Shown: piece after piece, positions 8,948-64,000 of the stretch
Layout: each line of letters opens with the position of its first letter
Numbering within the stretch: the stretch's first letter is position 1
DNA from: an uncultured Verrucomicrobiota bacterium
GTDB lineage: Bacteria > Verrucomicrobiota > Verrucomicrobiia > CAZIPW01
Direction of reading: 5' to 3'
Assembly: GCA_964541905.1 (NCBI GenBank)
Contig: CAZIRU010000004.1
Coordinates: forward strand, 17,588-81,587
Length of the DNA stretch: 64,000 nucleotides
The notes under the pieces: model-generated
Databases searched by the model: none
What the model was told of the DNA's origin: nothing
The model's input: the letters and a program-made list of their open reading frames with translations, nothing else
Position numbers and translations under genes: made by a program

Positions 8948-9598
8948 TCACCTCAAAGCGGTAATTTTTCTTTTAACCCCATTGCGGAAGGAGAAAACAA
9001 CGCCACCGACAATAAATTTCTTCTTGGCGCCGACATCAATAAATATCGCCGAGTTCTCCGGCAACCCCAATATTTCCACATCCAACTCCTTCGCCAAAGC
9101 CAAAAGTCTTTCATCGGCCGAAGGCTCATAATGGCAATCCAACACGCGATTTTCCAAAAAATTGAGGCCATCTTCGCGGGTATAATTTTCTTTTTCGGCT
9201 CCCGCCGTTCGAATATTCTTTCCGAAGATGATGGCGCCGGCGCTGCCACCATAAACAAGACCGCCGCGACTGATATATTCAGCCAATTTTATCCCCAAAG
9301 GCGTTGATTGCACATAATCAAGCAACCGATAAGTATTCCCGCCTCCTATATAAAGGGCATCGAAATCTTCAAGTTCGGGAATTCTCTCATCGCGTTGCTG
9401 CAAAACAAAAGTTATATCGTCGTCTCTGTTATGCTTGGAAAGCAAAGTTGAAAACCAGCCGCGACAAGAATCGAATTTATCGCTACTTCTAGCCTCTGGA
9501 ATATAAAGAATTTTGGCGCCTTTTTTGAGGAAAGCAAAATACCTTTCGTCCACTTCAAAACTCACCTCCGCATTTCCGCCGCCTGACAATATAAGCAT
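8948..9598 (-). CDS. peptidase S51 (dipeptidase E-like) / type-1 glutamine-amidotransferase-like protein
   Basis: MLILSGGG...YIGGGNTYRLLDY...GGSAGAIIFG is the S51 nucleophile-elbow pattern. The gene is inserted between gatC and gatA. Confidence 0.6.
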   Translation of the reverse strand: MLILSGGGNAEVSFEVDERYFAFLKKGAKILYIPEARSSDKFDSCRGWFSTLLSKHNRDDDITFVLQQRDERIPELEDFDALYIGGGNTYRLLDYVQSTPLGIKLAEYISRGGLVYGGSAGAIIFGKNIRTAGAEKENYTREDGLNFLENRVLDCHYEPSADERLLALAKELDVEILGLPENSAIFIDVGAKKKFIVGGVVFSFRNGVKRKITALR

Positions 9599-9659
9599 AT
9601 TTTTTAATTTTCAGCCGTCCAAAGCGCATTATAACTTTTGATTTTGCGTTTTGCGAAGG

Positions 9660-9944
9660 TTATTCCTCGACTACCCGCGGCACCACAAACTGATTCGCGC
9701 GCTTTTGGGGCGCATTCATGAGAGCTTCTTCCGGCGTAAAGCCTGGTACGGCCTTGTCCTCCTGCCAAACATTTTCCAGCGGGAAGGCGTGGGAGGTCGG
9801 CTCGACCCCTTCGGTATCAATCGCGCTTAATTGCGAAAAATAATCGAGCATCCCGCCGAGCTGCCGGCCAAATTTTTCTTCCTCTTCGGCCGTCAGGTCG
9901 AGCCGTGCGAGGGTTTTGAGATGCTTGATGTCAATATCCGCCAT
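9660..9944 (-). CDS. gatC: Asp-tRNA(Asn)/Glu-tRNA(Gln) amidotransferase subunit C
   Basis: 94 aa with IKHLKTLARLDLTAEEEEKF...IDTEGVEPTSH, typical of GatC. Confidence 0.9.
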   Translation of the reverse strand: MADIDIKHLKTLARLDLTAEEEEKFGRQLGGMLDYFSQLSAIDTEGVEPTSHAFPLENVWQEDKAVPGFTPEEALMNAPQKRANQFVVPRVVEE

Positions 9945-9998
9945 GCGGGTATTTTTTCAGAAAAAGCACACGGAGTGCAAGAAAGAATCGCATACCCC

Positions 9999-10218
9999 AG
10001 GCTCTGCTAACAAATTCTGACAGGCGCGGCGCTGTCGTAACAGATTCAGCAGTAGTAAGATGCGCAGCGCTTCCGCTTAGCTGAAGTTGGGCGGTTTTGA
10101 GTTTTAACTTCGTTTCTCGGTCGAAGTCCGTGCCTCTAGCACGAGTTTTTCCCTCAAAGCCTTGTTAAAACTCAAACCTGCCTCAACCGCTCCTTGCCAT
10201 AATTTGTTAGCAGAGCCT
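9999..10218. repeat. long-hairpin element, copy 1 (same family as 54158-54389 and 58396-58566)
   Basis: The 18-nt arm AGGCTCTGCTAACAAATT (9999-10016) is the exact reverse complement of 10201-10218. An inner T-rich arm (10086-10108) pairs with an A-rich arm (10164-10187). The core carries CGTTTCTC (10111-10118) and the hairpin CGTGC-CTCTA-GCACG (10129-10143). The right arm overlaps the stop codon of the recO-like gene. Confidence 0.75.
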
Positions 10219-10801
10219 AGCGCGTCCCGAGTTCACGCGCGGCCCAGCTTTTGAGCGATTCCAAAAGAGAGGCCCCCGACATCTCGGGCGGCTCTTCTAC
10301 GGCCGCGCGCAAAAGCCCCTGAGCTTGTGAGCGCTGCGGAGCGCTCAGGATCTCAAGCCAGCCTTCCTTGACCGCGAAACCCTCGGCGGAGAGAATTTTG
10401 TAGAGGGCCTTGAAGGTGATAAGCTCGGCCGCGGCGGGATGTCGAGCGTAGTGGGCAAGCGCTTTTTGAAAGAGGTCGAAAACGCCGCCATAGTCGGGGA
10501 GCTCGCGAAAAGTCGTGCGGAGAAAATGCGCGAGCGCGCAAGCCTGGTTAAAAGCGCCGAGATTCTGCCCAAGGGCGCAAGGCCGCTCAAGCAGGTGTAC
10601 CTCGCGCGCAAAAAATGCCTTGCCCTTGGGCGTGGCGATAAGCTCAACGGAGTCGAAAAGCCCGTAGGGAAGGGCTACTTTGATGGGGAGCGTGAGCGCA
10701 AGAAAGCCCTCCGCGCGGGTGAAAAGCTCCCAGCTTGAGTAACGCTCGGCCTTGGGCGCGCAGAGCACGACGATGCCGGAGAGAACGCGCGAGGTGGGCA
10801 T
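10217..10801 (-). CDS. RecO-like DNA repair protein (tentative)
   Basis: The N-terminus SRVLSGIVVLCAPKAERYSSWELFTRAEG resembles the RecO OB-fold start. The position downstream of phoH-ybeY-ddl is reminiscent of ybeY-era-recO synteny. At 194 aa it is short for RecO. Confidence 0.35.
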   Translation of the reverse strand: MPTSRVLSGIVVLCAPKAERYSSWELFTRAEGFLALTLPIKVALPYGLFDSVELIATPKGKAFFAREVHLLERPCALGQNLGAFNQACALAHFLRTTFRELPDYGGVFDLFQKALAHYARHPAAAELITFKALYKILSAEGFAVKEGWLEILSAPQRSQAQGLLRAAVEEPPEMSGASLLESLKSWAARELGTR

Positions 10802-10841
10802 GAGAGGATTTTCGTCGAAACTACCTGTGAAGGCAAATCTC

Positions 10842-11768
10842 CTAACAAATCGCCAGCGCGTATTTCTCCACAAAGCGCGCGCGGGCGCCACGAAGCATCT
10901 CATTTACAAGGGTCGGGAAATCGCGGCCGGTGACCGAAGCCGACTTGGGAAGAAGGCTGGTGGCGGTGAGCCCTGGGAGCGTATTGATTTCGAGAAAAAC
11001 GGGAGTCCCATCATCGCGCAGGCGAAAGTCTACGCGGGCAAAGTCGCGGCAAGCGCTGGCCTTGAAAAAGGCGGCAGATTCCTCGCGGAGGCGTTTGGCA
11101 ATAGGCTCGGCAATCTTGGCGGGAAATTCGTATTGAGTCTCTCCCGTGGTGTATTTGCGTTGATAATCGTAAACGCCTCCCTGCGGGATGATTTCGACCA
11201 CTCCCAAGGCCTCGCCATTGAGGACGCCCACGGTCATTTCGCGGCCAAAGACAAAACGCTCGGCGAGAGTGGGCTGGCCATCGAACTTTTTGAGAGCGGC
11301 CTCAAGCGATTTTTCGTTTTCGACGATTTGAAGCCCGACCGAAGAGCCTTCGGCATTGGGCTTAAGGACGATCTTGGGGCCGAGGTTTTTCCAAAGGGCA
11401 TGTGCGGGCGGGGGTGTTTGAAAACAAACGCCCTCGGGAATTTCGATGCCGAGATTGCGCGCGAGCGTCAAGGAGCGTTGTTTGTCGAAACAAAGCTGCG
11501 AGCTTTGCGAGTCGGCTCCGGTATATACAAAGCCGCGATCTTCAAGGAGCGCCTGCAACGCGCCATCTTCGCCAAAAGTGCCGTGAGTGGTCAGGAAAAG
11601 GATGTCTTTTTGAGGATCGAGCGCAGAGGGCAGTTCGTAGCTATCGAGCGTCATAAGCGCGGCCTCGGTGTGTTCTCGCAGCGCTTCATAGACGGCCTTG
11701 GCTGAGCGCAGCGAGACTTCGCGTTCCGAGGAAGTTCCCCCTCCCAAAATGACGACTCTTCCCTTCAT
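10842..11768 (-). CDS. ddl: D-alanine--D-alanine ligase
   Basis: GGTSSEREVSLRS, TTHGTFGEDGALQALLE, an ATP-grasp region, and the C-terminus EINTLPGLTATSLLPKSA. I chose the start (MKGRVVILGGG) directly after the ybeY stop. Confidence 0.9.
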   Translation of the reverse strand: MKGRVVILGGGTSSEREVSLRSAKAVYEALREHTEAALMTLDSYELPSALDPQKDILFLTTHGTFGEDGALQALLEDRGFVYTGADSQSSQLCFDKQRSLTLARNLGIEIPEGVCFQTPPPAHALWKNLGPKIVLKPNAEGSSVGLQIVENEKSLEAALKKFDGQPTLAERFVFGREMTVGVLNGEALGVVEIIPQGGVYDYQRKYTTGETQYEFPAKIAEPIAKRLREESAAFFKASACRDFARVDFRLRDDGTPVFLEINTLPGLTATSLLPKSASVTGRDFPTLVNEMLRGARARFVEKYALAIC

Positions 11769-19612: not shown

Positions 19613-20647
19613 ATGCCTGAAACACTTGAAATCAACATAGAGTACGACAAGCTCAATAAATACCAGCGCTTGGCGATCTTCATGATTGTGCTGGGAGTGC
19701 CTGTGGCTTCGGAACTTTTAAAGCACTTCGAGGACCACGAAGTGGAGCTTATTTGTCAGGAAATCGCCAACTATCCGCTTATCGACATGAAGACGAAAAA
19801 GCGTGTGATTGATGAGTTTAGCGGGATTATTGGCGAGGGGCTGGGGACTGAACTTGGAGGGTCGTCTTATGCGCTTAAGACGCTCGAGAAGGCAAAGGGA
19901 GATTTCAAGGCGGCCAATATTATTGGGAGAATTGCGCCAGCCACAAGTGCGCTGGAGGTCCTCAACGAGATTTCCGAAATGGAGCCGCGCCAGATTTACA
20001 ATTTGATTAAAAATGAGCAACCCCAGACGGTGGCCTTTATCCTTTCGCACCTTACGGAGGAGAAGTCAGCTGCCATTTTGACGATGTTGCCCCCAGAGTT
20101 GCGCGAAGTCGTCACTGAGCGCATCGGCATCATGGAGACGACTTCCACCGAGCTTGTGGCTAAGGTAGTGCACAATCTCAAAAAGCACATGGTGGGCGCC
20201 CAACGCCAGACGACACACGTTGCTGGCGGGATTCGTACTGTTGTCGGGCTTATCAACGCGATGGACAAAGAGGTCAGCAAGGCTCTCTTGGTCAAACTCG
20301 AGGAACGCAATCCGGCTTTGGGCCAAGCCATTCGCAAAAAACTGTTCTCTTTCGAAGACCTCCTCAAGCTTCAGCAGCCCGATTTGCAGCGAATTTTGCG
20401 CGAGGTCGAAATGGGGGACCTTACGATTGCGCTCAAATCTGCGACGCCCGCGCTTCAACAAGCGATTTACTCCGGTGTTTCCAAACGCGCCGCCGAAACC
20501 CTCAAAGAGGAAATTTCCATGCTCGGGCCTGTCAAGCTCAAGGACGTGGAAGCGGCTCAAGATCGTATTATTCAGGTGGTGCGCCGATTGGGTGACGATG
20601 GAGAAATCTCACTCGACGCTTCCGGCGGAGATCAAATGGTTGGATAG
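19613..20647 (+). CDS. fliG: flagellar motor switch protein FliG
   Basis: KYQRLAIFMIVLG, EPRQIYNLIKNEQPQTVAFILSHL and the C-terminus ISLDASGGDQMV. I chose the start at the ATG 1 nt after the fliF stop. Confidence 0.9.
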   Translation: MPETLEINIEYDKLNKYQRLAIFMIVLGVPVASELLKHFEDHEVELICQEIANYPLIDMKTKKRVIDEFSGIIGEGLGTELGGSSYALKTLEKAKGDFKAANIIGRIAPATSALEVLNEISEMEPRQIYNLIKNEQPQTVAFILSHLTEEKSAAILTMLPPELREVVTERIGIMETTSTELVAKVVHNLKKHMVGAQRQTTHVAGGIRTVVGLINAMDKEVSKALLVKLEERNPALGQAIRKKLFSFEDLLKLQQPDLQRILREVEMGDLTIALKSATPALQQAIYSGVSKRAAETLKEEISMLGPVKLKDVEAAQDRIIQVVRRLGDDGEISLDASGGDQMVG

Positions 20648-49351: not shown

Positions 49352-49807
49352 ATGAAAACTTTCTCAAAAAACCTCGAAGGTTTTTGCCTGATGGCCTCGC
49401 GGTCGCTTGAGGGAAGTTTTTTTGGCGCAGCCGTCATCTTAATCACGCACGATGACAAGCTGGAAGGAACTTTGGGAGTGATGCTCAATCGTCCGCTGGG
49501 GAAAAGGCTCAATGAGTTTTTCAATGGTCGGTGGCCGGAAGATGTGGAGCTTTTCCGTGGCGGTCCGGTCCAGCCCGAAACGCTGGCGCTCATCGGTTTT
49601 AGGTTTGGCAGGCGCAAGCTGGAAGCGCGCACACATTTGACGCCCCAGCAGGCTTTCGCCTTCAAAAGGGAAGCTCCCTCCCAGACCCAATTGCGCGGTT
49701 ATTTAGGCTACGCGGGCTGGGAACTTGGCCAGCTCGAAGACGAAATCGATCGCGGCGATTGGAAAGTCGTTCCTCTTACACCGGTAATCCTAGCCCCGCC
49801 CGATTAA
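49352..49807 (+). CDS. YqgE/AlgH-family (UPF0301) protein
   Basis: AVILITHDDKLEGTLGVMLNRPLG...GGPVQPE...GYAGWELGQLEDEI. Confidence 0.7.
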   Translation: MKTFSKNLEGFCLMASRSLEGSFFGAAVILITHDDKLEGTLGVMLNRPLGKRLNEFFNGRWPEDVELFRGGPVQPETLALIGFRFGRRKLEARTHLTPQQAFAFKREAPSQTQLRGYLGYAGWELGQLEDEIDRGDWKVVPLTPVILAPPD

Positions 49808-50760
49808 GGTTTGGCCTTGGTGGTATATATTTTTTTGCCAGTGCTCTCGTAATAAGTCCTGACGATTAGTTCCGCGCACAAGCCTATCGAGAGCAAAACA
49901 ACCCCGACGAGCATTGCGAAAACGCCAATAATGAGGATAGGACGCCCTCCCACATTGTGCCCCATGAGCTTTTCGATAAAAAGCTCCAGCAAAATGACTC
50001 CGCCCAACGCTCCAGCCAAAAGACCCGCTCCGCCAAAAAACTGAATCGGCCGGGTCGCAAATTTTTGAAAGAAAAACATCAAAAGCAAATCCAGCAGTAC
50101 CCTTGGCGCCTTCGCTAGGTTATACTTGCTCTTTCCGGCTACACGCGCATGGTGTCGCACGGCGACTTCCTTCAGCCGTGCCCCTTGTTGCGAAAGTAGA
50201 ACGGGAATAAACCGGTGCAGCTCGCCATAAAGCGTGAGATTCTTTGCAAACTCCGCGCGGAAAACACGCAGCGCGCATCCATAATCATGCATTCTCACTC
50301 CCGTCATATTGCGGATAAACCAATTTCCAATGAGAGAGGGGATTTTGACATCTGCGGCGCGGTCTTTGCGATCGACGCGCCAACCGCAAACAACGTCCGC
50401 CTCGCCGTTTTTTACGCTTTCGAGCATCGCAGGAATGTCGGAAGGGTCATTTTGCAGATCGCCGTCGAGCGTAATTATGTACGCTCCCTGCGCCGCGTCA
50501 AAACCGGCCGTGAGGGCAGCGCTTTGTCCATAGTTGCGCCGATGATAGACGGGTCGCAAAAGCGGGTGTTCGCCCTTGAGTTTCTCCAGCGCCTCTGCGG
50601 TGCCATCGTCCGAACCGTCGTCCACCAGCACCAGCTCAAAAGGGTGCCCCGTTTTCTGGAGAGCCTCTTCCAGCTTGCAAACGAGCGCGCCTACATTTTC
50701 TACTTCCCTATAAAGCGGGACCACCACACTCAGAAGTTCCTCACTGGCATTTGATGACAT
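49804..50760 (-). CDS. family-2 glycosyltransferase (polyprenyl-phosphate glycosyltransferase, ArnC/GtrB-like)
   Basis: LSVVVPLYREVENV, LVDDGSDDGT and ITLDGDLQNDP, plus two C-terminal TM segments. Confidence 0.8.
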   Translation of the reverse strand: MSSNASEELLSVVVPLYREVENVGALVCKLEEALQKTGHPFELVLVDDGSDDGTAEALEKLKGEHPLLRPVYHRRNYGQSAALTAGFDAAQGAYIITLDGDLQNDPSDIPAMLESVKNGEADVVCGWRVDRKDRAADVKIPSLIGNWFIRNMTGVRMHDYGCALRVFRAEFAKNLTLYGELHRFIPVLLSQQGARLKEVAVRHHARVAGKSKYNLAKAPRVLLDLLLMFFFQKFATRPIQFFGGAGLLAGALGGVILLELFIEKLMGHNVGGRPILIIGVFAMLVGVVLLSIGLCAELIVRTYYESTGKKIYTTKAKP

Positions 50761-52666: not shown

Positions 52667-54157
52667 ATGGATTTGGTTGCATTCTTTTCTGGCAAGGAAC
52701 TTATGAGCGCGGGTCTACTCGAGGGCGAGCCGACCAAGGGTCCGCTTTTAAAAACCATCGAACTTCTGCGCCCGGAACGCATTTTACTTTTGGCGCGCGA
52801 AGGGAGTGCCGAAGATGTAAAGACGCTTGCGGTGCTGCTTCCCGTCTACGTCCGGATGGAAACACTTCTTTGGAGCAATGGCGCTGGAGAGAGCATGAGC
52901 ACGTTGCTTGCGTTTCTGAAAGCTCACCGCGAGGAGCTTGCCGCCTATCGTGATGCCGCGATTCTCAACGCGGGAACGCCGCAAGAGCGGGCCACGCTTT
53001 GGATTTTAAAACATGACGGGACTTTTGTGGGAACGATGGTCGAGCCTCCCAGCGATTACAGTTTTTTGCCTGCGGTGCCCCAATATTTTGGCCGTGCGGC
53101 CGAAAAGAAAGAAACCTTTGTCGAGGAGGCGAGTGAAAATGCCGAGAGGCTTGAGGAGCCTTGGGTGAGTGTAGCGGCTAAGATTGGCTGCGTGGGGCGC
53201 AGCCCCCGTTTCCGGCAGATGTTGGAGGAAGCGGCGGCGTTGGCCAATCATCCTACCCCGATTCTTCTTTTTGGCGAAACCGGCACGGGCAAGGAAGTTG
53301 TTGCGCGTTTCGTGCACATGCTCAGCTCGCGTTCAGCCAAGCCCTTGGTTTGCGTCAACTGTGCTGCGCTTCCCGAAACTTTAGCCGAGTCGATTCTCTT
53401 TGGCCACGAGAAGGGTTCTTTTACGGGAGCCTACAAGCGCCAAGTGGGCAAGTTCGAGCAGGCGCACGAGGGGACGCTCTTTTTGGACGAGCTAGGCGAG
53501 CTTTCATTGGCCAATCAGGCCAAGCTTCTCCGCGCGCTGGAAACCCGCTGCGTGGATCCTCTGGGCAGCAATCAACCGGTGGAAGTGGACGTGCGGGTGA
53601 TTGCGGCGACGAATCGCAATTTGCTTCAGGCGGTGGCGCAGGGCCGTTTTCGCGAGGATCTTTACTATCGCCTGCGCGCGGGGGAGATCGACATCCCAAG
53701 CCTTCGCGAACGCGCCTCCGATATCCCGCTGATAGCGCTGCATTTGTTGGAGCGCTTCAATGCCACGTTGGCGATTCCCAAGCAATTTTCGCGTCAGGCG
53801 CTCAAGTTTTTGGAGGCCCAACCTTGGCCAGGGAATGTGCGCGACCTGATAAATACCATCGAGCGTGCAGCGCTTTTGTGCCCGCGCAATATTATCGAGC
53901 CCGAAGACTTTCGCGTTCAGACCGAATCCTTGCGGGCGGGCGCGCTAGGCAACTCGCTGCCGGCGCTCTACCCGGGTTTTTCGGTAGAGGGCTATCTCCA
54001 AAAGATTCGCCGCGATCTTTTCGAAAAGGCGCTGGCGCAAGCGGGGGGCTCGCGGGGCGAGGCGGCCCGCCTTTTGGGCATCACCCCCCAAGCCATCCAC
54101 AAATATCTCAAGCAGCAGGAGCAGGAAAACCTCATGCAAGAGAAGAACCCGCAATGA
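52667..54157 (+). CDS. sigma-54-dependent transcriptional activator (bEBP) with a non-receiver N-terminal domain
   Basis: AAA+ Walker A motif [14 protein letters not shown]-type loop [26 protein letters not shown], and a C-terminal Fis-type HTH ([18 protein letters not shown]). The N-terminal ~190 aa lacks the receiver DD/D/K pattern. Confidence 0.85.
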
Positions 54158-54389
54158 GAGCGTGTTTAGAATCTCTTCGCCATATTGCGCCGCATAATTT
54201 GCTGATAAACAATAATGAGCGGCGCCCTTCGGGTTGGGCGCTTTTGTGTTTTGGCGGCGTTTCTCGTTCGCATTTCGGGCTTCTAGCCCGTGTTGCTCGC
54301 TCGAAGAACCCCGATTTCATCGGGGCTTGGCCTTGCCAAAACGCCAAAATCATCCCAACAATACTGCCAAATAGATTCTGAACACGCTC
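54158..54389. repeat. long-hairpin element, copy 2 (same orientation as copy 1)
   Basis: GAGCGTGTTTAGAATCT (54158-54174) starts on the base after the activator stop codon. It pairs with AGATTCTGAACACGCTC (54373-54389) as 17 bp with one G-T. The core at 54233-54289 is homologous to copy 1 (27/35 over the CGTTTCTC...TCTAGC block) and to copy 3 (39/49). Confidence 0.75.
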
Positions 54390-54465
54390 TAAGGGCTTTT
54401 GTTTTGGGTGGCACGCAGCCTTGCGTCGAGCGCACCGCGAATTGCCGTGCAAAACGCCCGCGCCT

Positions 54466-56566: not shown

Positions 56567-57274
56567 ATGGCAGAAGAACATATTTCCCCTTCACGTCCTT
56601 TGGCGGTCGATTTGGATGGGACGCTGATCAAAACCGATTCGCTGCTGGAGGCTTGCGCGGCGCTTTGGTGCGCGGAGCCCTTTGCGTTTGTGAGGCTTCT
56701 CTTTTCGTCGGTTTTTTCCAGCGCGGCGGCGTTCAAGTGGGCGCTTTTTTCTCGCGTGGATTTGCAAACCCTTGAGGTTCCCTTTAGCGAAGCGCTCCTC
56801 GAGTGGCTGCGCGCGCAGAAGGCCTCCGGTCGCAGCCTTTTGCTTGTGAGCGCCACGCCGCAATTCTGGGTCGAGCGTTTGGCGGCGCGTGCGGCCGAAG
56901 CGGGCCTGCGTTTTGATGAAAGCATTGGCAGCACTCCGGTTGAAAATCGTCGCGGCAAGGGCAAGGCGGCGTACTTGGTCAAGCGTTTTGGCCGCGGCGG
57001 CTTCGACTACGTTGGCAACTCCCAAGCTGATATGGCGGTTTGGGCGGCGGCGGGCACGGCTTACAATGTGAACCCCTCGCGGCGGCTCGCGGAGTTTGCG
57101 CGCAAAAGGAAAATCGAGCTTTTGCAGATTGCCTCGCAGGAGCAAAGCCCTTTTATGGAGCGCTGGGATGAATTTCTGCGGATGCGCTCGGGGCTGGCAC
57201 TTTCAGCTTTTGCAGGGATGTTGACAGGGCTTGTCGGCTGGGCGGCATGGACGGGTTGGGGGCTTTTCTTATGA
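56567..57274 (+). CDS. HAD-superfamily (subfamily IB-like) hydrolase with a C-terminal TM segment
   Basis: DxDxT motif in LAVDLDGTLIKTDS. Later motifs are LLLVSATP and GNSQADMAVW. The hydrophobic tail overlaps the next gene (ATGA). Confidence 0.6.
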   Translation: MAEEHISPSRPLAVDLDGTLIKTDSLLEACAALWCAEPFAFVRLLFSSVFSSAAAFKWALFSRVDLQTLEVPFSEALLEWLRAQKASGRSLLLVSATPQFWVERLAARAAEAGLRFDESIGSTPVENRRGKGKAAYLVKRFGRGGFDYVGNSQADMAVWAAAGTAYNVNPSRRLAEFARKRKIELLQIASQEQSPFMERWDEFLRMRSGLALSAFAGMLTGLVGWAAWTGWGLFL

Positions 57275-58395
57275 TTGCACTTGACGTTACTACCACCCTG
57301 CGAAACCGTTCGCTTACGGGCATCCAGCGTGTCGTCATCGAATACCTGCGCGCCTTTCGCGAGCTGCGCGAGGACGTTCGTGCGGTGCGCGTCGAAAAGA
57401 GCAAGGGGCTTTTCGCGCTTTCCGAGCGCGAGACGACCTCGCTTCTCGAGCGCGGGCTCAACAACCGTCCGGCTTTGCGGCGCAAACGCTGGCAATGGCT
57501 GCGCAACGCGGGCGTTCCCTTGCAAATTTCCTCTACCGACGTGCTTTTTGCGCCGGAGTTTTTTGATGAGGCTCTTCTGGAATACCTCCCGCATTTTTCT
57601 CGGAGCGTTGCAATGCTGCACGATCTCAGCGCGCTCAAACATCCGCAATGGGTAACTAGCCCCAAGATGGCTGCCGCCTATCCGCGTTACGCTTTGGCTT
57701 TGTCACGTTTTTCGCGTGTAGTAGTTCCTTCGCTTGCCTCCAAGACCGATTTGGAGCGCTATTGGGATTTCCTTGAGCTTCCTTTGCGCCCGGGCGTGAG
57801 CGTCGTTGAGCACGGTCTGCGCGAGATTGGTTCCGGCGAGCTTCGCAACGCTCCTCCTTCGGATGCGCCCAAAAACCTTTTGTGTTTGGGCACGCTTGAG
57901 GCTCGCAAAAATCATCTTTGTTTGCTGGAGGCCTGCCACAAGCTCTGGCAAAACGGCGAGCATTTCACGCTGACGGTGGTTGGGGCGCAAGCTTCAAGCG
58001 GGGCCGCTGCCGCTGAGAAAATCCTCCAGCTTGCCAAGGAGGGCTTCCCCGTCCATTGGCGCGGGACGCTCAGCGACGTTGAGATTTCGCAGCTCTGGCG
58101 GAGCGCTTGGGCCTTCGTCTATCCCTCTTTCGAGGAGGGCTACGGCCTTCCGGTGATGGAAGCTCTTTCGCGCGGCGTGCCGGTCGTGTGCGGGACGGGT
58201 GGGGCCTTGCGCGAGCGCGTACGCGAGGGCGGCTGCGAAGTGTGCGAAGCTGTGGACGCGGAGGGCCTTGCGCGCGGGGTCAAAAACATCCTCAATCCCT
58301 CCGAGCGCGAGGCGCGTGCGGCCGAAGCGCGCCGTCTCAAGCCCCGCAGCTGGCACTCCGCCGCCAAGGAGCTCTTGACTCTTTTGCGAGCCTAA
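57271..58395 (+). CDS. family-4 (GT-B, Glycos_transf_1) glycosyltransferase
   Basis: The C-terminal pattern AWAFVYPSFEEGYGLPVMEALSRGVPVVCG is the EX7E GT4 signature. Confidence 0.8.
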   Translation: MIALDVTTTLRNRSLTGIQRVVIEYLRAFRELREDVRAVRVEKSKGLFALSERETTSLLERGLNNRPALRRKRWQWLRNAGVPLQISSTDVLFAPEFFDEALLEYLPHFSRSVAMLHDLSALKHPQWVTSPKMAAAYPRYALALSRFSRVVVPSLASKTDLERYWDFLELPLRPGVSVVEHGLREIGSGELRNAPPSDAPKNLLCLGTLEARKNHLCLLEACHKLWQNGEHFTLTVVGAQASSGAAAAEKILQLAKEGFPVHWRGTLSDVEISQLWRSAWAFVYPSFEEGYGLPVMEALSRGVPVVCGTGGALRERVREGGCEVCEAVDAEGLARGVKNILNPSEREARAAEARRLKPRSWHSAAKELLTLLRA

Positions 58396-58566
58396 GAGCC
58401 TATCCCGATAGGAGAGCGTAGGCGAGGCGCGAGGATTTTTGTTTTTTAGCAAGGCTTCGGAGGAGGAAGTGGGCTAGAAGCCCATACTCCGGGGGAGAAA
58501 CGCCGCTAAAAGACAAAAAGACCGCGAGTTTCTCGTCCGCGCCAGCTAACCTATCGGGATGGGCTC
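58396..58566. repeat. long-hairpin element, copy 3 (reverse orientation relative to copies 1 and 2)
   Basis: GAGCCTATCCCGATAGG (58396-58412) starts on the base after the GT4 stop. It pairs with CCTATCGGGATGGGCTC (58550-58566) as 17 bp with one G-T, and the right arm overlaps the stop of the AP2-like gene. The reverse complement of 58471-58519 matches 54241-54289 at 39/49 positions without gaps. Confidence 0.75.
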
Positions 58567-59078
58567 TAACCCTTTGCCCCTTCGTCGGCTTGGCCTTGCA
58601 GTCTTTTCTTTGCGGCGATTTTCCTGAATACGCCTGCGCCAAAGCGGCGGATGAGGCCCTTGTTGCGGATTCGGCAGGCTTTTTTCAAAGCCTTTTCCTC
58701 GCCATACTTCAAAATCGAGATGCTTGTGGTTCGCTGCACTCCCGGCATCGGGTGCCAAGTCACCAGATAATAGGGGGCGCTTGTGCCGTCGGCTTTCTTT
58801 TTGTTGACGCGGGTCACTCCGATGACTCCCGAGCGGTTTCTTTTGTTTTTGCAAACAATGTTTTTGCCTCGCACGCGGATGCCCTGACGTTGCAATCGCG
58901 AGAGTGTTTCGTCGCGGAAGAGTCGGGCGGCTGTTTGGGAAAGTCGTTTTCCGCCGGCGGCCTGATCGCTAAAAAACTTCATAATGCGCTCATCTCCCCT
59001 GACGATGCGCACCAACCAGCCGCCGCTTGAGGGCTTTTCCATTCTCGAGATATTGCGATTGGGATTCGGCAAAGCCAT
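58566..59078 (-). CDS. putative DNA-binding protein with two AP2/ERF-like repeats (tentative)
   Basis: Two segments resemble AP2-type beta-sheet-plus-helix units. They are GGWLVRIVRGDERIMKFF...AARLFRDE and GVIGVTRVNKKKADGTSAPYYLVTWHP...YGEEKALKKACRIRN. The protein is basic. Confidence 0.35.
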   Translation of the reverse strand: MALPNPNRNISRMEKPSSGGWLVRIVRGDERIMKFFSDQAAGGKRLSQTAARLFRDETLSRLQRQGIRVRGKNIVCKNKRNRSGVIGVTRVNKKKADGTSAPYYLVTWHPMPGVQRTTSISILKYGEEKALKKACRIRNKGLIRRFGAGVFRKIAAKKRLQGQADEGAKG

Positions 59079-59134
59079 GCGCCAAGCATAGGCGATTTTG
59101 CTTTTGTGGTGAAGCCCAAAAACCCGCCCGTGCG

Positions 59135-59743
59135 CTATTTTTCCTCTGGCACGGCTTCGGCTATGGCGCGGGCAAGTTCGGGTAGCAGAGCGCTCGTGCG
59201 CCGAGCAAAGTCCTCGTAATTTCCATTGCGCCAGCCGTTTTGCGTAAAGCTTCGCGAGAAGCTGTTCAGGAGCGCTCCCGCTTCGTCAAGCACCGAGACG
59301 TGGCAGCTCAATACCACTTCGCCATTGGGGGAGGCCCAAAGCTTCTCCACGCTTACGTTGATGCGCACGTCGGGCTTATACGGGCCAAAGAGGGGAGGCG
59401 TTTCCACTTGCAGAAAGTATTCTCTAAGTCCGGCGGCCAGCTCGCGTCCCAGAGCGCGTTGCAGGGGTTCGGCCCAGCGATAGTTTTCCTGATAGGCCAG
59501 CTGATAATCCGAGCGCGCTAAAATCATTCTCGGCGAACGCAGCGCGGCGGAGGTGTCCACCTTCAAAAGCACCTTCTGCTCTCTGGGAGCGAGCCCTTCA
59601 TTGGCTTTGTCGGCGACATATTCGATGCGGTAAAAATTGGCGGGGGCCGAGGAGGCCATCGGTGGGGTTAGACAGCCGGAGAGCGCCACACAGACAAAAG
59701 CGCAGAAGGCTCCGAGCGACAACAACTCATTAACTTTATTCAT
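59135..59743 (-). CDS. ABC-type transport auxiliary lipoprotein (PqiC/YmbA-like, DUF330-like)
   Basis: Lipobox LSGC. About 200 aa, directly downstream of and overlapping an MCE-domain gene, as for PqiC. Confidence 0.5.
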   Translation of the reverse strand: MNKVNELLSLGAFCAFVCVALSGCLTPPMASSAPANFYRIEYVADKANEGLAPREQKVLLKVDTSAALRSPRMILARSDYQLAYQENYRWAEPLQRALGRELAAGLREYFLQVETPPLFGPYKPDVRINVSVEKLWASPNGEVVLSCHVSVLDEAGALLNSFSRSFTQNGWRNGNYEDFARRTSALLPELARAIAEAVPEEK

Positions 59744-60635
59744 TGGCGGGTCTTCCTGTTAAGATTGCATTGGGATGTCTTTCAAGGTAATCGGTCAGGC
59801 GCGCCACCGCTTCGGCGGCATCGCTGACGTTTTCCAAAAGCCGATAAAGCCGCAAGCCAACAGCGCTTTCGCCCTGCAGCGCGCCGCCAATTTCTTGCGA
59901 AGCCCTGCCCAGTCCCACAAGCGCTTCGGCTGCGTGACGGGCCACATTTTCTTCGCGCGCCTCTTTCAAGATGGCGTCGAGCGAGGCCGCGGAATTTTGC
60001 ACCGAGGCGCCGAACTCTTTTGCGTCCACCGAAGCGAGGATGCGGTTAAGCGAAGTGGCGAGATTGCGGATGGAGTCGGCCAGTCCCGCATAATCCACAG
60101 CGTTGAGCCGGGCAAAGAGGTCGTTGGCGGAGTTGCCCAGCTCGCTGAATTGGCCGCGGACGGTGGGGATTTCGGGATAGATATCGCTTTGCGCAAAATA
60201 TTCGGGCTGGATATTGCTGGGGAAGTAATTAAGGTCCACAAAAAGCAGTCCCGTAATAAAGCTCTCAAGTTGCAGTTGGGCGCGCAGCCCTCCTTTGACT
60301 TCCTCTCGAAGGACGTCGCTGACCGAAACCTTGCGCAGCTCGGCGAGTTGTTTAAGCTGTTCGCTTTCGATTTCCATCAGCACGGGGATTCGGGCAGAGG
60401 TCTTGGCCTGATTGTAGCTGATGTAGATTTTTTTGACCTGGCCGATCGGTACGCCCTTGAATTTGACCGAAGAGCCGACCGAAAGCCCTTTTACCGAGTC
60501 CTCAAAGTACATGATATACGTCTGTGTGCTGGAAAAAAGCGAGGTTGTGCTAAAAAAAAGGAGCATGCCCAAGGCCAAAAAAAGGGCCGTTAGGACAAAA
60601 GTGCCAACTTTAATGGGAGAGATTTCCCGTGCCAT
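59736..60635 (-). CDS. MCE/MlaD-family protein
   Basis: N-terminal TM segment, then the MCE domain signature LSVGSSVKFKGVPIGQVKKI. Confidence 0.75.
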   Translation of the reverse strand: MAREISPIKVGTFVLTALFLALGMLLFFSTTSLFSSTQTYIMYFEDSVKGLSVGSSVKFKGVPIGQVKKIYISYNQAKTSARIPVLMEIESEQLKQLAELRKVSVSDVLREEVKGGLRAQLQLESFITGLLFVDLNYFPSNIQPEYFAQSDIYPEIPTVRGQFSELGNSANDLFARLNAVDYAGLADSIRNLATSLNRILASVDAKEFGASVQNSAASLDAILKEAREENVARHAAEALVGLGRASQEIGGALQGESAVGLRLYRLLENVSDAAEAVARLTDYLERHPNAILTGRPANE

Positions 60636-60713
60636 ATCAAAAACTGTTCTACGCTCTACGGCTTAAAGGCGCAAGCGGATAACAACGGATGCGTGATGTG
60701 GAATCTCCGCGCG

Positions 60714-62177
60714 CTATTTTTCCGGAGCCGCGGGATCCTCGGGCCGCGAAAAATAGCCCCAGATTCCCTCCAGCGGGAGCGCTTTTGCTGATTTTTGAGC
60801 TAGAAATTTCTGAAGATCTCCGGCAAAAGCCTTGGGGACGTCCAACGTAAAGGCGATGCGCCCCTTTCCGAGCGAAGCGGCCAGATACAGACTTCCTTTT
60901 TCTCCCGAATACGGCGCCCCCGAAAGATCGTTCCAGAGTTTCGAGGCATCCGCTTTGGCTTGCAGGCACAAGGTGGGGTAGAAGGTAAACGCCTTGCTAA
61001 GCATTTTTCCTGACGCGCCTTTCGAGCTGCCGAGGGTCTCCAAGAGGGCCGTCACGCTTTCCGCCGAGGGAGCACTCAGGATATTCCCATCGCTAAGCGC
61101 CACAAAGAGGCGTTCGGAGCCCTCTTCTTTTTTGGAGAGCTTCCAGACGCTGGCGCCGCTTACTTCAAAAGCCGTCCGTGCTTGCGTCCCCTCAAAAAAC
61201 ATTCCCGCCGCGTTGAGCGCTTGGGCGCTGGTGCTGCTATTGAAGCGCCCGGTTGCAAAAATGCGCGGGGCAGCCTCGCCCTTGTAAAAGGCAAAAGCCG
61301 CATAGCCATTCAAATAGGGTAGTGCACTTTGAAGCTCCGTGACGCTTTTGCCCGAGAGCGTTTGGTAGTGAGCCAGATATTCACTCACAACGGTCGGGTT
61401 CAAAAGCGCATAGCCATACAAGAAGGCATCGTTCACCGTTAAAAGGTTGTGAGCTTCGGGAGCTTTGGCGATGAGCTTTTGGTTAAAAAGATCGTGCAAG
61501 GGTGTTCCTTGGCGCGCGGCGAGGATAAGGATCGAGCGCAGACCCTCGGGGATGGTAAAGACGCGCAGCTCGGCATAGTCGAGGTCCTTGAGCTCTGTCA
61601 AAACGGGCTTGTACGCATCTGTCAAAAACGCGCCGAAGGGATTGCCCTCCAAGGCGCCGGCAAGTACGCTTGGGGCCAGCCGCACAAAGAAAGGGTATCC
61701 CTTGCCGTCTTCGCAAGCCTCTTTGAGGGTATTTTGAGCTTCGTTGTCAAGGGGGTGTTCTTGAGGGAACCCGATGACCCCTGGAGTATTGCCCTCTCTT
61801 TCCACAAAGGTATAGCGGCCCGAAAGGCTTTCGGTGAAGTGATCCAGCGGCCCATAATCGTCAAAGCCGGCGACGACGGCCCAAAAAACATTTTCTCCCT
61901 CCTTCAGCAGAAACAGGTCGAGCGTTTGAGTGTGGCGCTGCACCCACAGGAACATATCGCGCTGACGGCCGAGTTCCGCCACTTTGCCCAGAATCGTTTT
62001 TTCCTCGGCCTCGTTAGGAGCTTTGGTTTGCTGCCAAGCCTCGATGGTAGCGTCAAACTTTTGCCGTACCAGTTCCGTGCAGTCGGCGGGCAAAAGGTGT
62101 ATACGGAGGAGTTGTTCCGGCGCGGCTACTGCGACCGAGCACGCGAGAAAAAGGCCCAAAAGAAATCGATAATGCAT
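60714..62177 (-). CDS. secreted hypothetical protein (487 aa)
   Basis: Signal peptide (MHYRFLLGLFLACSVAVAAPE). No recognisable motif. Upstream of the MCE gene on the same strand. Confidence 0.5.
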   Translation of the reverse strand: MHYRFLLGLFLACSVAVAAPEQLLRIHLLPADCTELVRQKFDATIEAWQQTKAPNEAEEKTILGKVAELGRQRDMFLWVQRHTQTLDLFLLKEGENVFWAVVAGFDDYGPLDHFTESLSGRYTFVEREGNTPGVIGFPQEHPLDNEAQNTLKEACEDGKGYPFFVRLAPSVLAGALEGNPFGAFLTDAYKPVLTELKDLDYAELRVFTIPEGLRSILILAARQGTPLHDLFNQKLIAKAPEAHNLLTVNDAFLYGYALLNPTVVSEYLAHYQTLSGKSVTELQSALPYLNGYAAFAFYKGEAAPRIFATGRFNSSTSAQALNAAGMFFEGTQARTAFEVSGASVWKLSKKEEGSERLFVALSDGNILSAPSAESVTALLETLGSSKGASGKMLSKAFTFYPTLCLQAKADASKLWNDLSGAPYSGEKGSLYLAASLGKGRIAFTLDVPKAFAGDLQKFLAQKSAKALPLEGIWGYFSRPEDPAAPEK

Positions 62178-62424
62178 CTGCTTTATATTGAATTTTATTA
62201 AAACGCCTATTTTTGAGGGAAAAGGCGTCTTATGGCAAGGTTTTGCCCTCGGAATGCCTTTTTTTAGCCCTAAAAACGTCTTAAGCTACTGTAGTGTAAT
62301 AGTTTAATATAAAAACTCAAAAATTTAACAATTTTTTTGAAAAAAAGCTTTTACTTTTGGCAATAACTTGTCATTATCTCTTTTGAACCGTGTCGTCATG
62401 GCAGGGTTCACAAAACAAAACACT

Positions 62425-63192
62425 ATGAAAAACACTCTGACAATCGTCGCCCTTACGGCGCTTTTTGCGGGTGCGTTGTTCGCTGCCGAGACCACGACGT
62501 CTTGGGTGGACGACCTCTCCGTACAGGCTTCCGTCGGGTTTGATTCCGAGTACGTCTTCCGTGGCCGCAATATCGATCACAATGTGATCACGGCTACCTT
62601 GGACGGCTCCTACAAGCTCTACAAGGGCTCGCTCTACACAGGATTGAAGAGCATTAATGGTCAGGACTCCACCTACACTGAGACGAACCTCTACGTCGGC
62701 TATAAACTGCCGGTGTACGAGAAGTTCTCTGCTGACTTCGGTGGTACCTACTATTACTACAGCAATGACAACCCGGCAATCGACCGTACTTTCGAGCTCT
62801 ATGCGGGCTTGATCTACAACGGTCTTTATGTCAACCCGGCAGTGTATGTCTTCTACGACTTCGCTCTCGAGCAGTGGGTTGGTGAGCTCTCCGGCAAGTA
62901 CAGCTGGGATCTCTCCAAGTATGGCATGGCCAACACCTCTTTGGATGTGGGTGCCTTCTTGGGCGTTCTCGCCGCTGATGACGCTGATTCCGATCAGGTC
63001 GCTGGCGACACCAAGAACAGCTATATGTACTATGGTGTGACTGCAGACCTCGTCTACAGCTTCACCAAGACCGCTTCTGCCTCGATTGGCATTGCCTACA
63101 ACGGCAATGACGACGACCAGAGCACTGGAGACAAACTCTTCGACCGCGAGAACAGCTTCTTCTGGGGAGCCAAGTTCACCGCTGGTTTCTAA
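62425..63192 (+). CDS. outer-membrane beta-barrel protein (Gcw_chp/TorF-like, tentative)
   Basis: Signal peptide (MKNTLTIVALTALFAGALFA), alternating Tyr/Gly-rich beta-strand pattern, and the C-terminus FWGAKFTAGF ending in Phe. Confidence 0.6.
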   Translation: MKNTLTIVALTALFAGALFAAETTTSWVDDLSVQASVGFDSEYVFRGRNIDHNVITATLDGSYKLYKGSLYTGLKSINGQDSTYTETNLYVGYKLPVYEKFSADFGGTYYYYSNDNPAIDRTFELYAGLIYNGLYVNPAVYVFYDFALEQWVGELSGKYSWDLSKYGMANTSLDVGAFLGVLAADDADSDQVAGDTKNSYMYYGVTADLVYSFTKTASASIGIAYNGNDDDQSTGDKLFDRENSFFWGAKFTAGF

Positions 63193-63214
63193 TTGTAGAG
63201 TCTAGCTAAAAATT

Positions 63215-63247
63215 TGGGCCCTGCCGCAAGGTGGGGCCCATTTTTTT
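63215..63247 (+). terminator. rho-independent terminator after the OMP gene
   Basis: TGGGCC (63215-63220) pairs with GGCCCA (63235-63240). TTTTTTT follows. Confidence 0.65.
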
Positions 63248-63277
63248 GCCATGCGTTCACAATTTTTCACAAAACAT

Positions 63278-63307
63278 TTGACAAATGACAAAGGCGTGCG
63301 CTAAGAT
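63278..63307 (+). promoter_or_regulatory. candidate sigma-70 promoter of rplM-rpsI (TTGACA-N18-TAAGAT)
   Basis: Consensus -35 element at 63278-63283 and -10 element at 63302-63307. Only 11 nt separate the -10 from the rplM ATG. Confidence 0.5.
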
Positions 63308-63318
63308 AATTCCTCTTT

Positions 63319-63744
63319 ATGAAAACAACTTTGGCTAAGAAAGGAAGTGTCTCGCAGGACTGGTATATCATTGACGCTTCCAAGGAAATTTTGGGACGCA
63401 TGGCGGTCAAGATCGCAACAATTTTGCGCGGCCGCAACAAGCCGCTCTACACCCCCAACGCGGATGCGGGCGATTTTGTGATTGTCATCAATGCCGATAA
63501 AGTGAAAGTGACCGGCAAGAAGGAGACCGACAAGGACTACATGTTCTTTGGGGGTTACGTTGGCCGCGAGCGCCATCAGAATCTCGCTTCTATGCGCGCG
63601 CGTCGTCCCGACTACATCATCAAGCACGCCGTCAAGGGAATGCTTCCGCAGAACCGTCTGGCCGATCGCCTTTTGACCAAGCTCAAGGTTTATCGCGGTG
63701 CCGAGCATCCTCATGCCGCCCAGAATCCCAAGCCCCTCAACTAA
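63319..63744 (+). CDS. rplM: 50S ribosomal protein L13
   Basis: DWYIIDASKEILGRMAVKIATILRGRNKPLYTPNADAGDFVIVINADKV is canonical L13. Confidence 0.95.
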   Translation: MKTTLAKKGSVSQDWYIIDASKEILGRMAVKIATILRGRNKPLYTPNADAGDFVIVINADKVKVTGKKETDKDYMFFGGYVGRERHQNLASMRARRPDYIIKHAVKGMLPQNRLADRLLTKLKVYRGAEHPHAAQNPKPLN

Positions 63745-63753
63745 ATTTTTAAA

Positions 63754-64000
63754 ATGACCGCTTCCAATACCATTGTCACCGTCGGCCGCCGCAAAACGGC
63801 CGTTGCTCGTGTCCGCCTTTCCCCCGGGACCGGCAAGATTGTCGTCAATCGCCGCGAGTTCGCGGAATATTTCAAGACGGATTCCCTCCAGCGTGCGGCG
63901 ATGGCACCGCTCTCGACGATCGAAGCCAAGGATCAATACGATTTTACAGTTCTCGTGAATGGCGGCGGCTCTTGCGGCCAAGCGGGAGCGATGGCTCTTG
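63754..64000 (+). CDS. rpsI: 30S ribosomal protein S9 (5' part; runs off the window)
   Basis: My translation from ATG 63754 gives MTASNTIVTVGRRKTAVARVRLSPGTGKIVVNRREFAEYF...NGGGSCGQAGAMAL. The frame is open to the window end. Confidence 0.9.
   Translation, partial: MTASNTIVTVGRRKTAVARVRLSPGTGKIVVNRREFAEYFKTDSLQRAAMAPLSTIEAKDQYDFTVLVNGGGSCGQAGAMAL

Follow-up and report, generated by a model that had tools for sequence, protein, structure and literature searches.

A 173-nt palindrome lying between two convergent genes of an uncultured, Opitutales-like verrucomicrobium (copy 3) belongs to a family of long-hairpin repeats, four copies of which occur within about 78 kb of contiguous genome, in both orientations, all of them intergenic and with different neighbours each time. 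We lean, on balance, towards reading this family as bacterial MITE-type repeats that are palindromic, 170-235 bp long, non-coding, non-autonomous, and restricted to this lineage. Three full copies (copies 1-3) are located in the 64,000-nt stretch of DNA analysed here (the window), whose gene content is that of an ordinary chromosome (gatCAB, ddl, phoH, cheB/cheR, a large flagellar cluster, glycosyltransferases, mlaD, and rplM). The GroEL and GatA proteins are those of Opitutales-like Verrucomicrobiota, with the nearest relatives 80-82% identical and one partial NCBI GroEL sequence scoring higher.

The coordinates and sequences reported for copy 3 in a first-pass annotation all match the window sequence. 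That annotation had set the limits of the element at 58396 and 58566, with the arms GAGCCTATCCCGATAGG (58396-58412) and CCTATCGGGATGGGCTC (58550-58566), and these arms do pair over 17 bp with a single T:G; the palindrome, however, runs one base further on each side (A58395/T58567), which results in 18 paired positions, one of them T:G (58395-58412/58550-58567), and it therefore overlaps both stop codons. An inverted-repeat scan delimited the palindrome arms as 58395-58417 and 58545-58567. The proposed position of the element, wedged between two convergent stop codons, was borne out, the stop codon of the family-4 glycosyltransferase (GT4) gene being TAA at 58393-58395 and that of the AP2-like gene being TAG, read as CTA at 58566-58568 (Table 1). 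The pairing of the inner helix (58436-58449 with 58506-58519, one T:G) and the positions of the apical hairpin GGGC-TAGAA-GCCC and of GAGAAACG were likewise confirmed. The AP2-like domain itself is weak (PF00847, E = 7.7e-4, below the Pfam cut-off). As RNA, the + strand of copy 3 folds at -93.7 kcal/mol, compared with -56.0 +/- 3.8 kcal/mol for shuffled sequences (z = -9.98; 0 of 200 shuffles folded as well), and the - strand at -79.4 kcal/mol (z = -8.05 versus shuffles). An assembly artefact can be ruled out as the origin of copy 3, because its arm-flank junctions were recovered without mismatch in two independent Logan assemblies (SRR8925774 and SRR8925805).

Table 1. Copies 1-3 of the long-hairpin repeat family, parts of copy 3, and its flanking genes (positions in the window).
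Feature	Position	Strand	Remarks
Copy 1, whole element	9999..10218	-	220 nt; orientation as copy 2; covariance model 93.5 bits
Copy 1, ends			Right end overlaps the TAG stop codon of the - strand ORF 10217-10903; left end 55 nt upstream of the gatC start codon
Copy 2, whole element	54157..54390	-	234 nt; core inverted versus copy 3; covariance model 98.1 bits
Copy 2, left end			Overlaps the TGA stop codon of a sigma-54 activator gene
Copy 2, accessory region	~54183..54236
Copy 2, extra hairpin	54309..54325
Copy 3, whole element	58395..58567	+	173 nt; covariance model 102.9 bits, E = 4e-23
Copy 3, left terminal arm AGAGCCTATCCCGATAGG	58395..58412	.	Starts with the final A of the GT4 stop codon
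Copy 3, inner helix, T-rich 5' strand TTTTTGTTTTTTAGC	58436..58450	+	Pairs with 58505-58519
Copy 3, apical domain	58450..58504	+	Non-palindromic; carries invariant motifs
Copy 3, invariant apical motif CAAGGC	58450..58455
Copy 3, invariant apical hairpin GGGC-TAGAA-GCCC	58471..58483
Copy 3, invariant apical motif GAGAAACG	58495..58502
Copy 3, inner helix, A-rich 3' strand GCTAAAAGACAAAAA	58505..58519	+	Conserved
Copy 3, right terminal arm CCTATCGGGATGGGCTCT	58550..58567	.	Final CT is part of the AP2-like stop codon CTA, which is TAG on the - strand
GT4 gene	57271..58395	+	374 aa; stop codon adjoins and partly lies within the left end of copy 3
AP2-like gene	58566..59078	-	170 aa; convergent with GT4; stop codon overlaps the right end of copy 3
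Left flanking direct repeat CTAA (or TAA)	58392..58395	+	Includes the GT4 stop codon TAA at 58393-58395
Right flanking direct repeat CTAA (or TAA, 58567-58569)	58566..58569	+	Includes the AP2-like stop codon, CTA being TAG on the - strand
End sequences of family elements			GAGCGTGTTCAGAATC, GAGCCTATCCCGATAGG, GGCTCTGCTAACAAATT

The suggestion that copy 3 is the third, inverted member of a family is supported by the shared core pattern, the alignment, and the covariance-model score. A core of about 95 nt, 66-75% identical among the three copies, is common to all of them, with the orientation of copy 3 opposite to that of copies 1 and 2; the similarity to copy 2 pointed out in the first-pass annotation was recovered as 48 nt with 81% complementarity (54242-54289 versus 58471-58518). 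Exact matches to the 24-nt core pattern TTTTGNNTTTTNNCNNCGTTTCTC number three in the window; when up to three mismatches were allowed there were four, compared with 0.15 expected by chance. The three copies are also the top three among the 75 local inverted repeats of the window, and each carries a terminal inverted repeat of 17-18 bp with no or one mismatch. With all filters off, a covariance model of the core scored them at 93-103 bits, whereas the next match other than the opposite strand of a copy reached 13 bits, and scanning the window with the model found no family members beyond copies 1-3. A further long hairpin at 19939-20161 was considered as another copy, but it lies inside fliG and is not a member of the family. 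Copy 3 is the shortest member (173 nt versus 220 nt for copy 1 and 234 nt for copy 2); it lacks the accessory hairpin region of about 50-60 nt common to copies 1 and 2, as well as the extra hairpin found in copy 2, and thus represents the minimal architecture, as had been supposed.

The fourth copy was reached through a Logan contig (L105) that matches the window perfectly from 58540 to 64000 and runs on to 64309 in window coordinates. Copy 4 is situated about 280 nt past the window edge, begins about 132 nt downstream of rpsI, and is inverted relative to copy 2. The 28 nt of its terminus that are visible match the right arm of copy 2 at 28 of 28 positions; outside the arm, the flank of copy 4 (TAGCAATATTG) is unrelated to that of copy 2 (AAGGGCTTTTG), so that similarity stops at the base of the hairpin. 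A terminus shared between unrelated flanks points to recent copying of a self-contained unit. Every Logan contig that runs into an element ends 26-30 nt inside an arm. The Logan assembly graph uses k = 31, and such contig ends suggest the behaviour of this graph at repeats and, for copies 1 and 3 as well, further, nearly identical copies elsewhere in the genome; alternatively, the breaks could have arisen because sequencing coverage was lost at the hairpins. Separately, the 314-aa product encoded at 875-1819 of the window (FabH) was also called on another Logan contig (L107).

The arms and the core of the element differ in the way they have changed. The 18-nt terminal arms of copies 1-3 agree with each other at only 5-10 of 18 positions, and the two arms of each copy are still complementary; the pairing of the arms has been kept while their sequence has drifted. 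In the three-way alignment, 94% of the pair positions are paired and both sides have changed in 27 of 64 pairs, among them 5 of the 15 pairs of the inner helix (helix 4) and 4 of the 10 pairs of helix 7 in the apical domain, these covariation statistics being based on the three full copies (1-3). None of 500 shuffles reached the observed value, and sliding the partner by 1-3 columns reduced the paired fraction to 39-48%. Because the arms evolve faster than the core, selection on pairing, or arm-to-arm correction, together with a separate constraint on the apex, may be considered: pairing may be maintained by selection on a folded strand or by arm-to-arm palindrome correction during replication, and the asymmetric apex of about 55 nt is under an additional constraint of its own and is probably a module acting at the level of protein binding or of RNA.

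This pattern of conservation is where two other explanations have to be weighed. According to the first, the elements would be multi-copy functional structured RNAs, derived or processed from 3' UTRs, in which the apical domain (CAAGGC, the GCUAGAR loop, and GAGAAACG) would be the active part, e.g. protein-binding or catalytic, the closing helix would need only to pair, and duplication would be incidental. The strong covariation along the whole hairpin, including the small apical hairpin, the conservation of the core above that of the arms, and the presence of several invariant unpaired motifs agree with such a function; the covariation signal of a palindrome, however, is equal on either strand and at the DNA level. 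In all three copies, folding is more stable on the same element strand, namely the one reading GCUAGAAGC...GAGAAACG, at -95.3 versus -81.0 kcal/mol for the opposite strand in copy 3, -102.1 versus -96.8 kcal/mol in copy 2, and -94.9 versus -94.0 kcal/mol in copy 1 (differences of 14.3, 5.3, and 0.9 kcal/mol, respectively), and this strand is co-directional with the upstream gene in copies 1 and 4, the copies in which this can be judged. We regard the assignment of the functional strand to the one reading GCUAGAAGC...GAGAAACG as a lean rather than a result; the provisional sense strand of copy 3 is accordingly its + strand, which reads ...GCUAGAAGC...GAGAAACG... The first-pass annotation had left the orientation unsettled and had noticed that, in copy 2 as in copy 3, the T:G pair of the closing stem is a wobble when read on the + strand. 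The latter is correct and the caution was fair: the arm mismatches comprise overall 4 of the G:U type, 2 of the A:C type, and 9 transversions, and a wobble asymmetry of 4 versus 2 is not significant, decides nothing, and was dropped as an indicator of the strand.

Other observations also weigh against a functional RNA class. Screening the whole window against Rfam 15 (4227 models) at gathering thresholds gave no match, and searching each copy at E <= 10 returned only noise (13-17 bits against thresholds of 36-66). No promoter-like site was predicted in or beside the elements on the relevant strand, and copies 1 and 3 have no room for a promoter of their own because their 5' ends touch stop codons. 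In addition, the terminus shared by copies 2 and 4 beside unrelated flanks, and the pattern of stop codons in the flanks, resemble insertions, and the absence of the family from every other genome searched is unusual for a functional RNA class. Structured RNA thus appears to us an unlikely explanation, though one that deserves to be kept in view.

The second explanation would place function in folded single-stranded DNA, with the apical hairpin and neighbouring motifs being recognised or nicked by a structure-specific enzyme, for instance an HUH nuclease of the IS200/IS605 or REP-RAYT kind or a tyrosine recombinase of the kind that acts on integron attC sites, and with arms that need only pair. 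Variable arms with preserved pairing, combined with a small hairpin that has a GC stem and a 5-nt loop, correspond to the logic that such enzymes read; the sense-strand 5' flank is always of the TA type (CTAG, CTTA, CTAA, CTAA), while the 3' flank varies, which recalls one-sided target recognition; and stop codons directly adjoin the elements, as they do attC sites. Against this, no HUH transposase, RAYT, or integrase is encoded in the window, the ends of IS200/IS605 elements are not mutual inverted repeats, and the stem-base conservation, length, co-oriented arrays, and adjacent intI of attC sites are not found here. Extrusion of a cruciform from duplex DNA would also be unlikely with an asymmetric centre of 45-70 nt. 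We therefore consider this explanation very improbable. A related idea, that a new functional module resides in the apex (CAAGGC, the 4-5-bp stem with a CUAGAR loop, and GAGAAACG) and is carried on a freely varying hairpin, being either an undescribed protein-binding or catalytic RNA domain or the recognition or nicking hairpin of a structure-specific single-stranded DNA enzyme, strikes us as a long shot.

The elements do not encode protein. All six frames in copies 1-3 are interrupted or not conserved between the copies, and ten candidate translations across the elements are absent from a collection of 15 billion proteins. The apex of copy 3 could be read as a small ORF (GTG-GGC-TAG), but this reading was rejected, as the ORF is not conserved between copies. 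By eye, no sigma-54 or sigma-28 promoter, IHF site, or GANTC motif consistent across copies was found in the core or arms. A scan for tRNA and tmRNA genes in the sequence found none.

The position of copies 2 and 3 between convergent genes brings up the question of transcription termination, and the elements might be seen as elaborate bidirectional terminators or insulators that are non-mobile and have diverged in place from an ancestral terminator. A terminator scan indeed flagged copies 1 and 2 on the CGTTTCTC strand, which contains a GC-rich hairpin followed by TTTTGNGTTTT. This module, however, is absent from copy 3, in copy 1 it faces a strand without an upstream gene, and its T-tract is the 5' strand of a helix rather than a tail after the hairpin. 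Moreover, half-elements show no folding advantage over shuffled sequence (z = +0.3 to +0.8), and the flanks beyond the full hairpin are not U-rich. Divergence in place also fails to explain the identical terminus of copy 4 beside unrelated flanks. The terminator explanation accordingly has little to recommend it in our estimation.

We return to the MITE-like reading. The repeat CTAA (or TAA) that borders the element on both sides is a putative target-site duplication, judged from sequence. Comparison of the flanks gave TAA/TAA or CTAA/CTAA for copy 3, TGA/TAA (2 of 3 positions) for copy 2, and 0 of 3 positions for copy 1, and the direct repeat of copy 3 is partly forced, because both of its flanks have to be stop codons. 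A stop codon is overlapped by 4 of the 6 ends of copies 1-3. We infer transposition accompanied by a TAA/CTAA-type duplication, as follows. In the ancestral site, the GT4 and AP2-like genes would have had overlapping stop codons in a TAA/CTAA-type sequence, into which the element would have been inserted; the duplication of the site would have left one stop codon at each end, so that both genes would have kept their stops and the hairpin would occupy the entire gap. The exact filling of the intergenic gap would thus be due to the duplication of a shared stop-codon site on insertion. The empty allele at this site is predicted as ...GCCTAACCC... Elsewhere in the window, the stop codons of another convergent gene pair do overlap (TTAA at 49804-49807), which makes the proposed pre-insertion state realistic.

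Several observations speak against a MITE. The terminal arms are less conserved than the interior, whereas the terminal repeats of classical MITEs are conserved transposase-binding sites; among copies 1-3, the matching repeat is perfect at copy 3 only; and neither a transposase nor a related autonomous element was found in the window, which also encodes no integrase, reverse transcriptase, HUH transposase, or RAYT.

Relatives of the family were sought in several collections, with exact core patterns used for the genome, metagenome, and viral scans. In species-representative genomes, the exact pattern TTTTGNNTTTTNNCNNCGTTTCTC was found at 71 loci, which were single chance matches in unrelated taxa, none with a downstream TCTAG. 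The pattern CGTTTCTC-N3-CG-N8-GC-N-TCTAGC gave five matches in JGI metagenomes, all attributable to chance, and exact core patterns gave 16 loci in IMG/VR viral sequences; none of the matches from these three collections fitted the covariance model. A blastn search of plasmids detected no family member and no related autonomous element, and about 36 kb from the two closest accessible relatives (GatA 78-82% identical) was free of family members and of long hairpins. The family is absent from all other sequences searched and, on this basis, looks lineage-restricted. In relatives, gatC directly follows pheT, and in those bearing GT4 a tlyA-like gene comes after GT4, which means that gene order is broken at the positions of copies 1 and 3, respectively. 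The location of these two copies at gene-order breaks would fit repeat-associated rearrangement. Because of this rearrangement at copies 1 and 3, the relatives offer no clean empty site.

The family shares features with several known repeat systems. Like the Correia/NEMIS elements of Neisseria and the ERIC elements of Enterobacteriaceae, it consists of non-coding intergenic repeats of 100-230 bp with terminal inverted repeats, one long stem-loop, and TA-type junctions. In ERIC, too, the most conserved part is the centre. In contrast to these systems, the arms of the present elements differ strongly between copies (5-10 of 18 positions), while the asymmetric core of about 95 nt is conserved. 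There is also no sequence similarity to these elements (Rfam and BLAST were negative), the G+C content is about 50% rather than A+T-rich, and the target-site duplication is here only a candidate, perfect in copy 3 alone. Correia/NEMIS and ERIC elements are, as here, often found just downstream of genes, are co-transcribed with them, and can affect mRNA processing and stability (PMC2229807; PMC3184786). In bacterial MITEs more generally, the 5' and 3' ends pair into a stem-loop, termini are of the TA type, and elements located at gene 3' ends are co-transcribed (PMC2229807; PMC3184786). The Bacillus repeat bcr1, in which compensatory changes keep the secondary structure, belongs to the group A repeats of the Bacillus cereus group, and is similarly interspersed, about 155 bp long, non-conserved in its genomic distribution, and transcribed (PMC3184786); the present family differs from it in forming one long hairpin with an apical junction and in having ambiguous flank repeats.

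With IS5 and PIF-Harbinger ('Tourist-like') MITEs, the family shares ends that begin with GAG... in copies 2, 3, and 4 and flanks of the TAA/TTA/CTAA/CTAG type. Subgroups of the IS5 family and Tourist MITEs produce 3-4-bp TNA/YTAR duplications and have GAG/GG termini. The resemblance to their ends and duplications may serve as a lead, by analogy, but neither a matching transposase nor an autonomous element was found, conservation of the terminal repeats does not extend across subfamilies, and only one duplication is perfect. Integron attC sites are likewise imperfect palindromes of variable sequence and conserved pairing, located directly after stop codons and working as a folded single strand. 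They are about 57-141 bp long, have conserved R''/R' core sites (RYYYAAC/GTTRRRY) at the stem base, and are arranged in arrays of a single orientation next to intI. The present elements, by contrast, are 173-234 bp long, copy 3 points the opposite way to copies 1 and 2, and no integrase is encoded in the window; a GCTAAC/GTTAGC pair is present in copy 1 only and absent from the other copies. REP/BIME sequences and REPINs are extragenic palindromes at gene 3' ends as well, which stabilise upstream mRNA and are dispersed and lineage-specific. REPs are 20-40 bp long and carry a GTAG or CGTC tag (PMC3733652), whereas the elements described here are 5-8 times longer (173-234 bp), carry neither tag at their ends, and enclose a large core that is asymmetric.

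In the MITE-like reading, the elements would be transcribed only by read-through from flanking genes, having no space for a promoter of their own, and would be co-transcribed into 3' UTRs. The transcript would fold into an interrupted hairpin of about 70 bp at the 3' end of the mRNA. ERIC, Correia, and REP hairpins are known to act on mRNA 3' ends or on convergent transcription (PMC2229807; PMC3184786) and, by analogy with them, the hairpin could be a barrier to 3' exonucleases, a processing site for a double-strand-specific RNase, or a block between convergent genes. An effect on mRNA 3' ends or on convergent transcription is thus probable by analogy.

If this reading is right, the elements represent a MITE-like family from a poorly sampled verrucomicrobial lineage, and copy 3 exemplifies insertion into overlapping convergent stop codons, where the duplication of the site leaves both genes intact. 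Hairpins of this kind break short-read assemblies and mark points of rearrangement, and their recognition helps in finishing and annotating MAGs. A core more conserved than fast-changing arms that are still complementary offers a natural test of how palindromes are maintained, by selection or by correction. Should the apex prove to be a recognition hairpin for a single-stranded DNA enzyme, the family would constitute a new type of hairpin-borne mobile element, read at its centre and not at its termini.

Gene order in relatives was compared with that around the hairpin repeats. In two of them (L111 and L112, compared with window positions 8948-10903), the genes are arranged as pheS-pheT-gatC-gatA-gatB. 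Here, a gene encoding a 228-aa protein, for which no family match was found, and copy 1 of the hairpin family lie upstream of gatC in place of pheT, and an S51-peptidase gene separates gatC from gatA; the break in gene order relative to these relatives coincides with copy 1. Copy 3 is the second hairpin element located at such a break: in relatives L085 and L110 (compared with 57271-59078), a HAD-GT4 pair is followed on the same strand by a tlyA-like (S4/FtsJ) gene, whereas in this genome copy 3 comes next after GT4, and beyond it lies the convergent AP2-like gene.

The GT4 protein shows only 47% identity to its closest homolog among 5.8 billion proteins. The product of the AP2-like gene may contain two AP2-like repeats and has no NCBIfam match; nothing ties this protein to the hairpin repeat. 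Copy 3 had been proposed to have inserted into overlapping convergent stop codons. Elsewhere in the window, two convergent genes have overlapping stop codons in a common TTAA (49804-49807), which provides a precedent for the proposed state before insertion.

Positions of genes, hairpins, and contig ends (window coordinates)
Feature	Position	Strand/orientation	Remarks
Chemotaxis and flagellar gene region	about 10900-52500		cheB, cheR; fliF, fliG, flagellar export ATPase, flgK, flagellins
Convergent pair with overlapping stops	49352-49807; 49804-50760	+; -	second gene, family-2 glycosyltransferase
GT4 gene	57271-58395	+	Glycos_transf_1 match; also Pfam 'GT4-conflict' PF20706, E = 4.7e-18
AP2-like gene	58566-59078	-	170-aa product; AP2-domain match below threshold, E = 7.7e-4
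Terminator-like hairpin + TTTTGNGTTTT	54221-54252 (copy 2); 10073-10104 (copy 1)	+	
Extra hairpin CCCCGATTTCATCGGGG	54309-54325		copy 2 only
Copy 4, visible terminus	64282-64309 (window-equivalent)	inverted vs copy 2	L105:1-28, just past window end
Contig ends inside arms	10028, 54365, 58420, 58540		Logan contigs L072, L105, L107

A fourth copy lies approximately 132 nt downstream of rpsI. The part of its terminus that is visible, 28 bases, matches copy 2's right arm (54363-54390) at every position, and the flank of the fourth copy is unrelated. At every element reached, Logan short-read contigs from two runs stop 26-30 nt into the hairpin arms, which indicates that k-mer assemblies break up at these repeats. 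To the left of copy 1, one of these contigs extends for 23.9 kb without interruption, and this stretch therefore holds no hairpin copy. No copy was found either across the gene-dense region of approximately 42 kb (about 10900-52500) that carries chemotaxis (cheB, cheR) and flagellar genes; the 36-nt direct-repeat family D1 is located in this region.

Internally, copies 1 and 2 carry a GC-rich hairpin followed by TTTTGNGTTTT, flagged as terminator-like. In copy 2 this hairpin faces a sigma-54 activator gene, and in copy 1 there is no upstream gene on that strand. The extra hairpin of copy 2 forms part of an insertion of approximately 24 nt in the apical domain; its presence in this copy alone shows that the family evolves through the gain and loss of whole hairpins.
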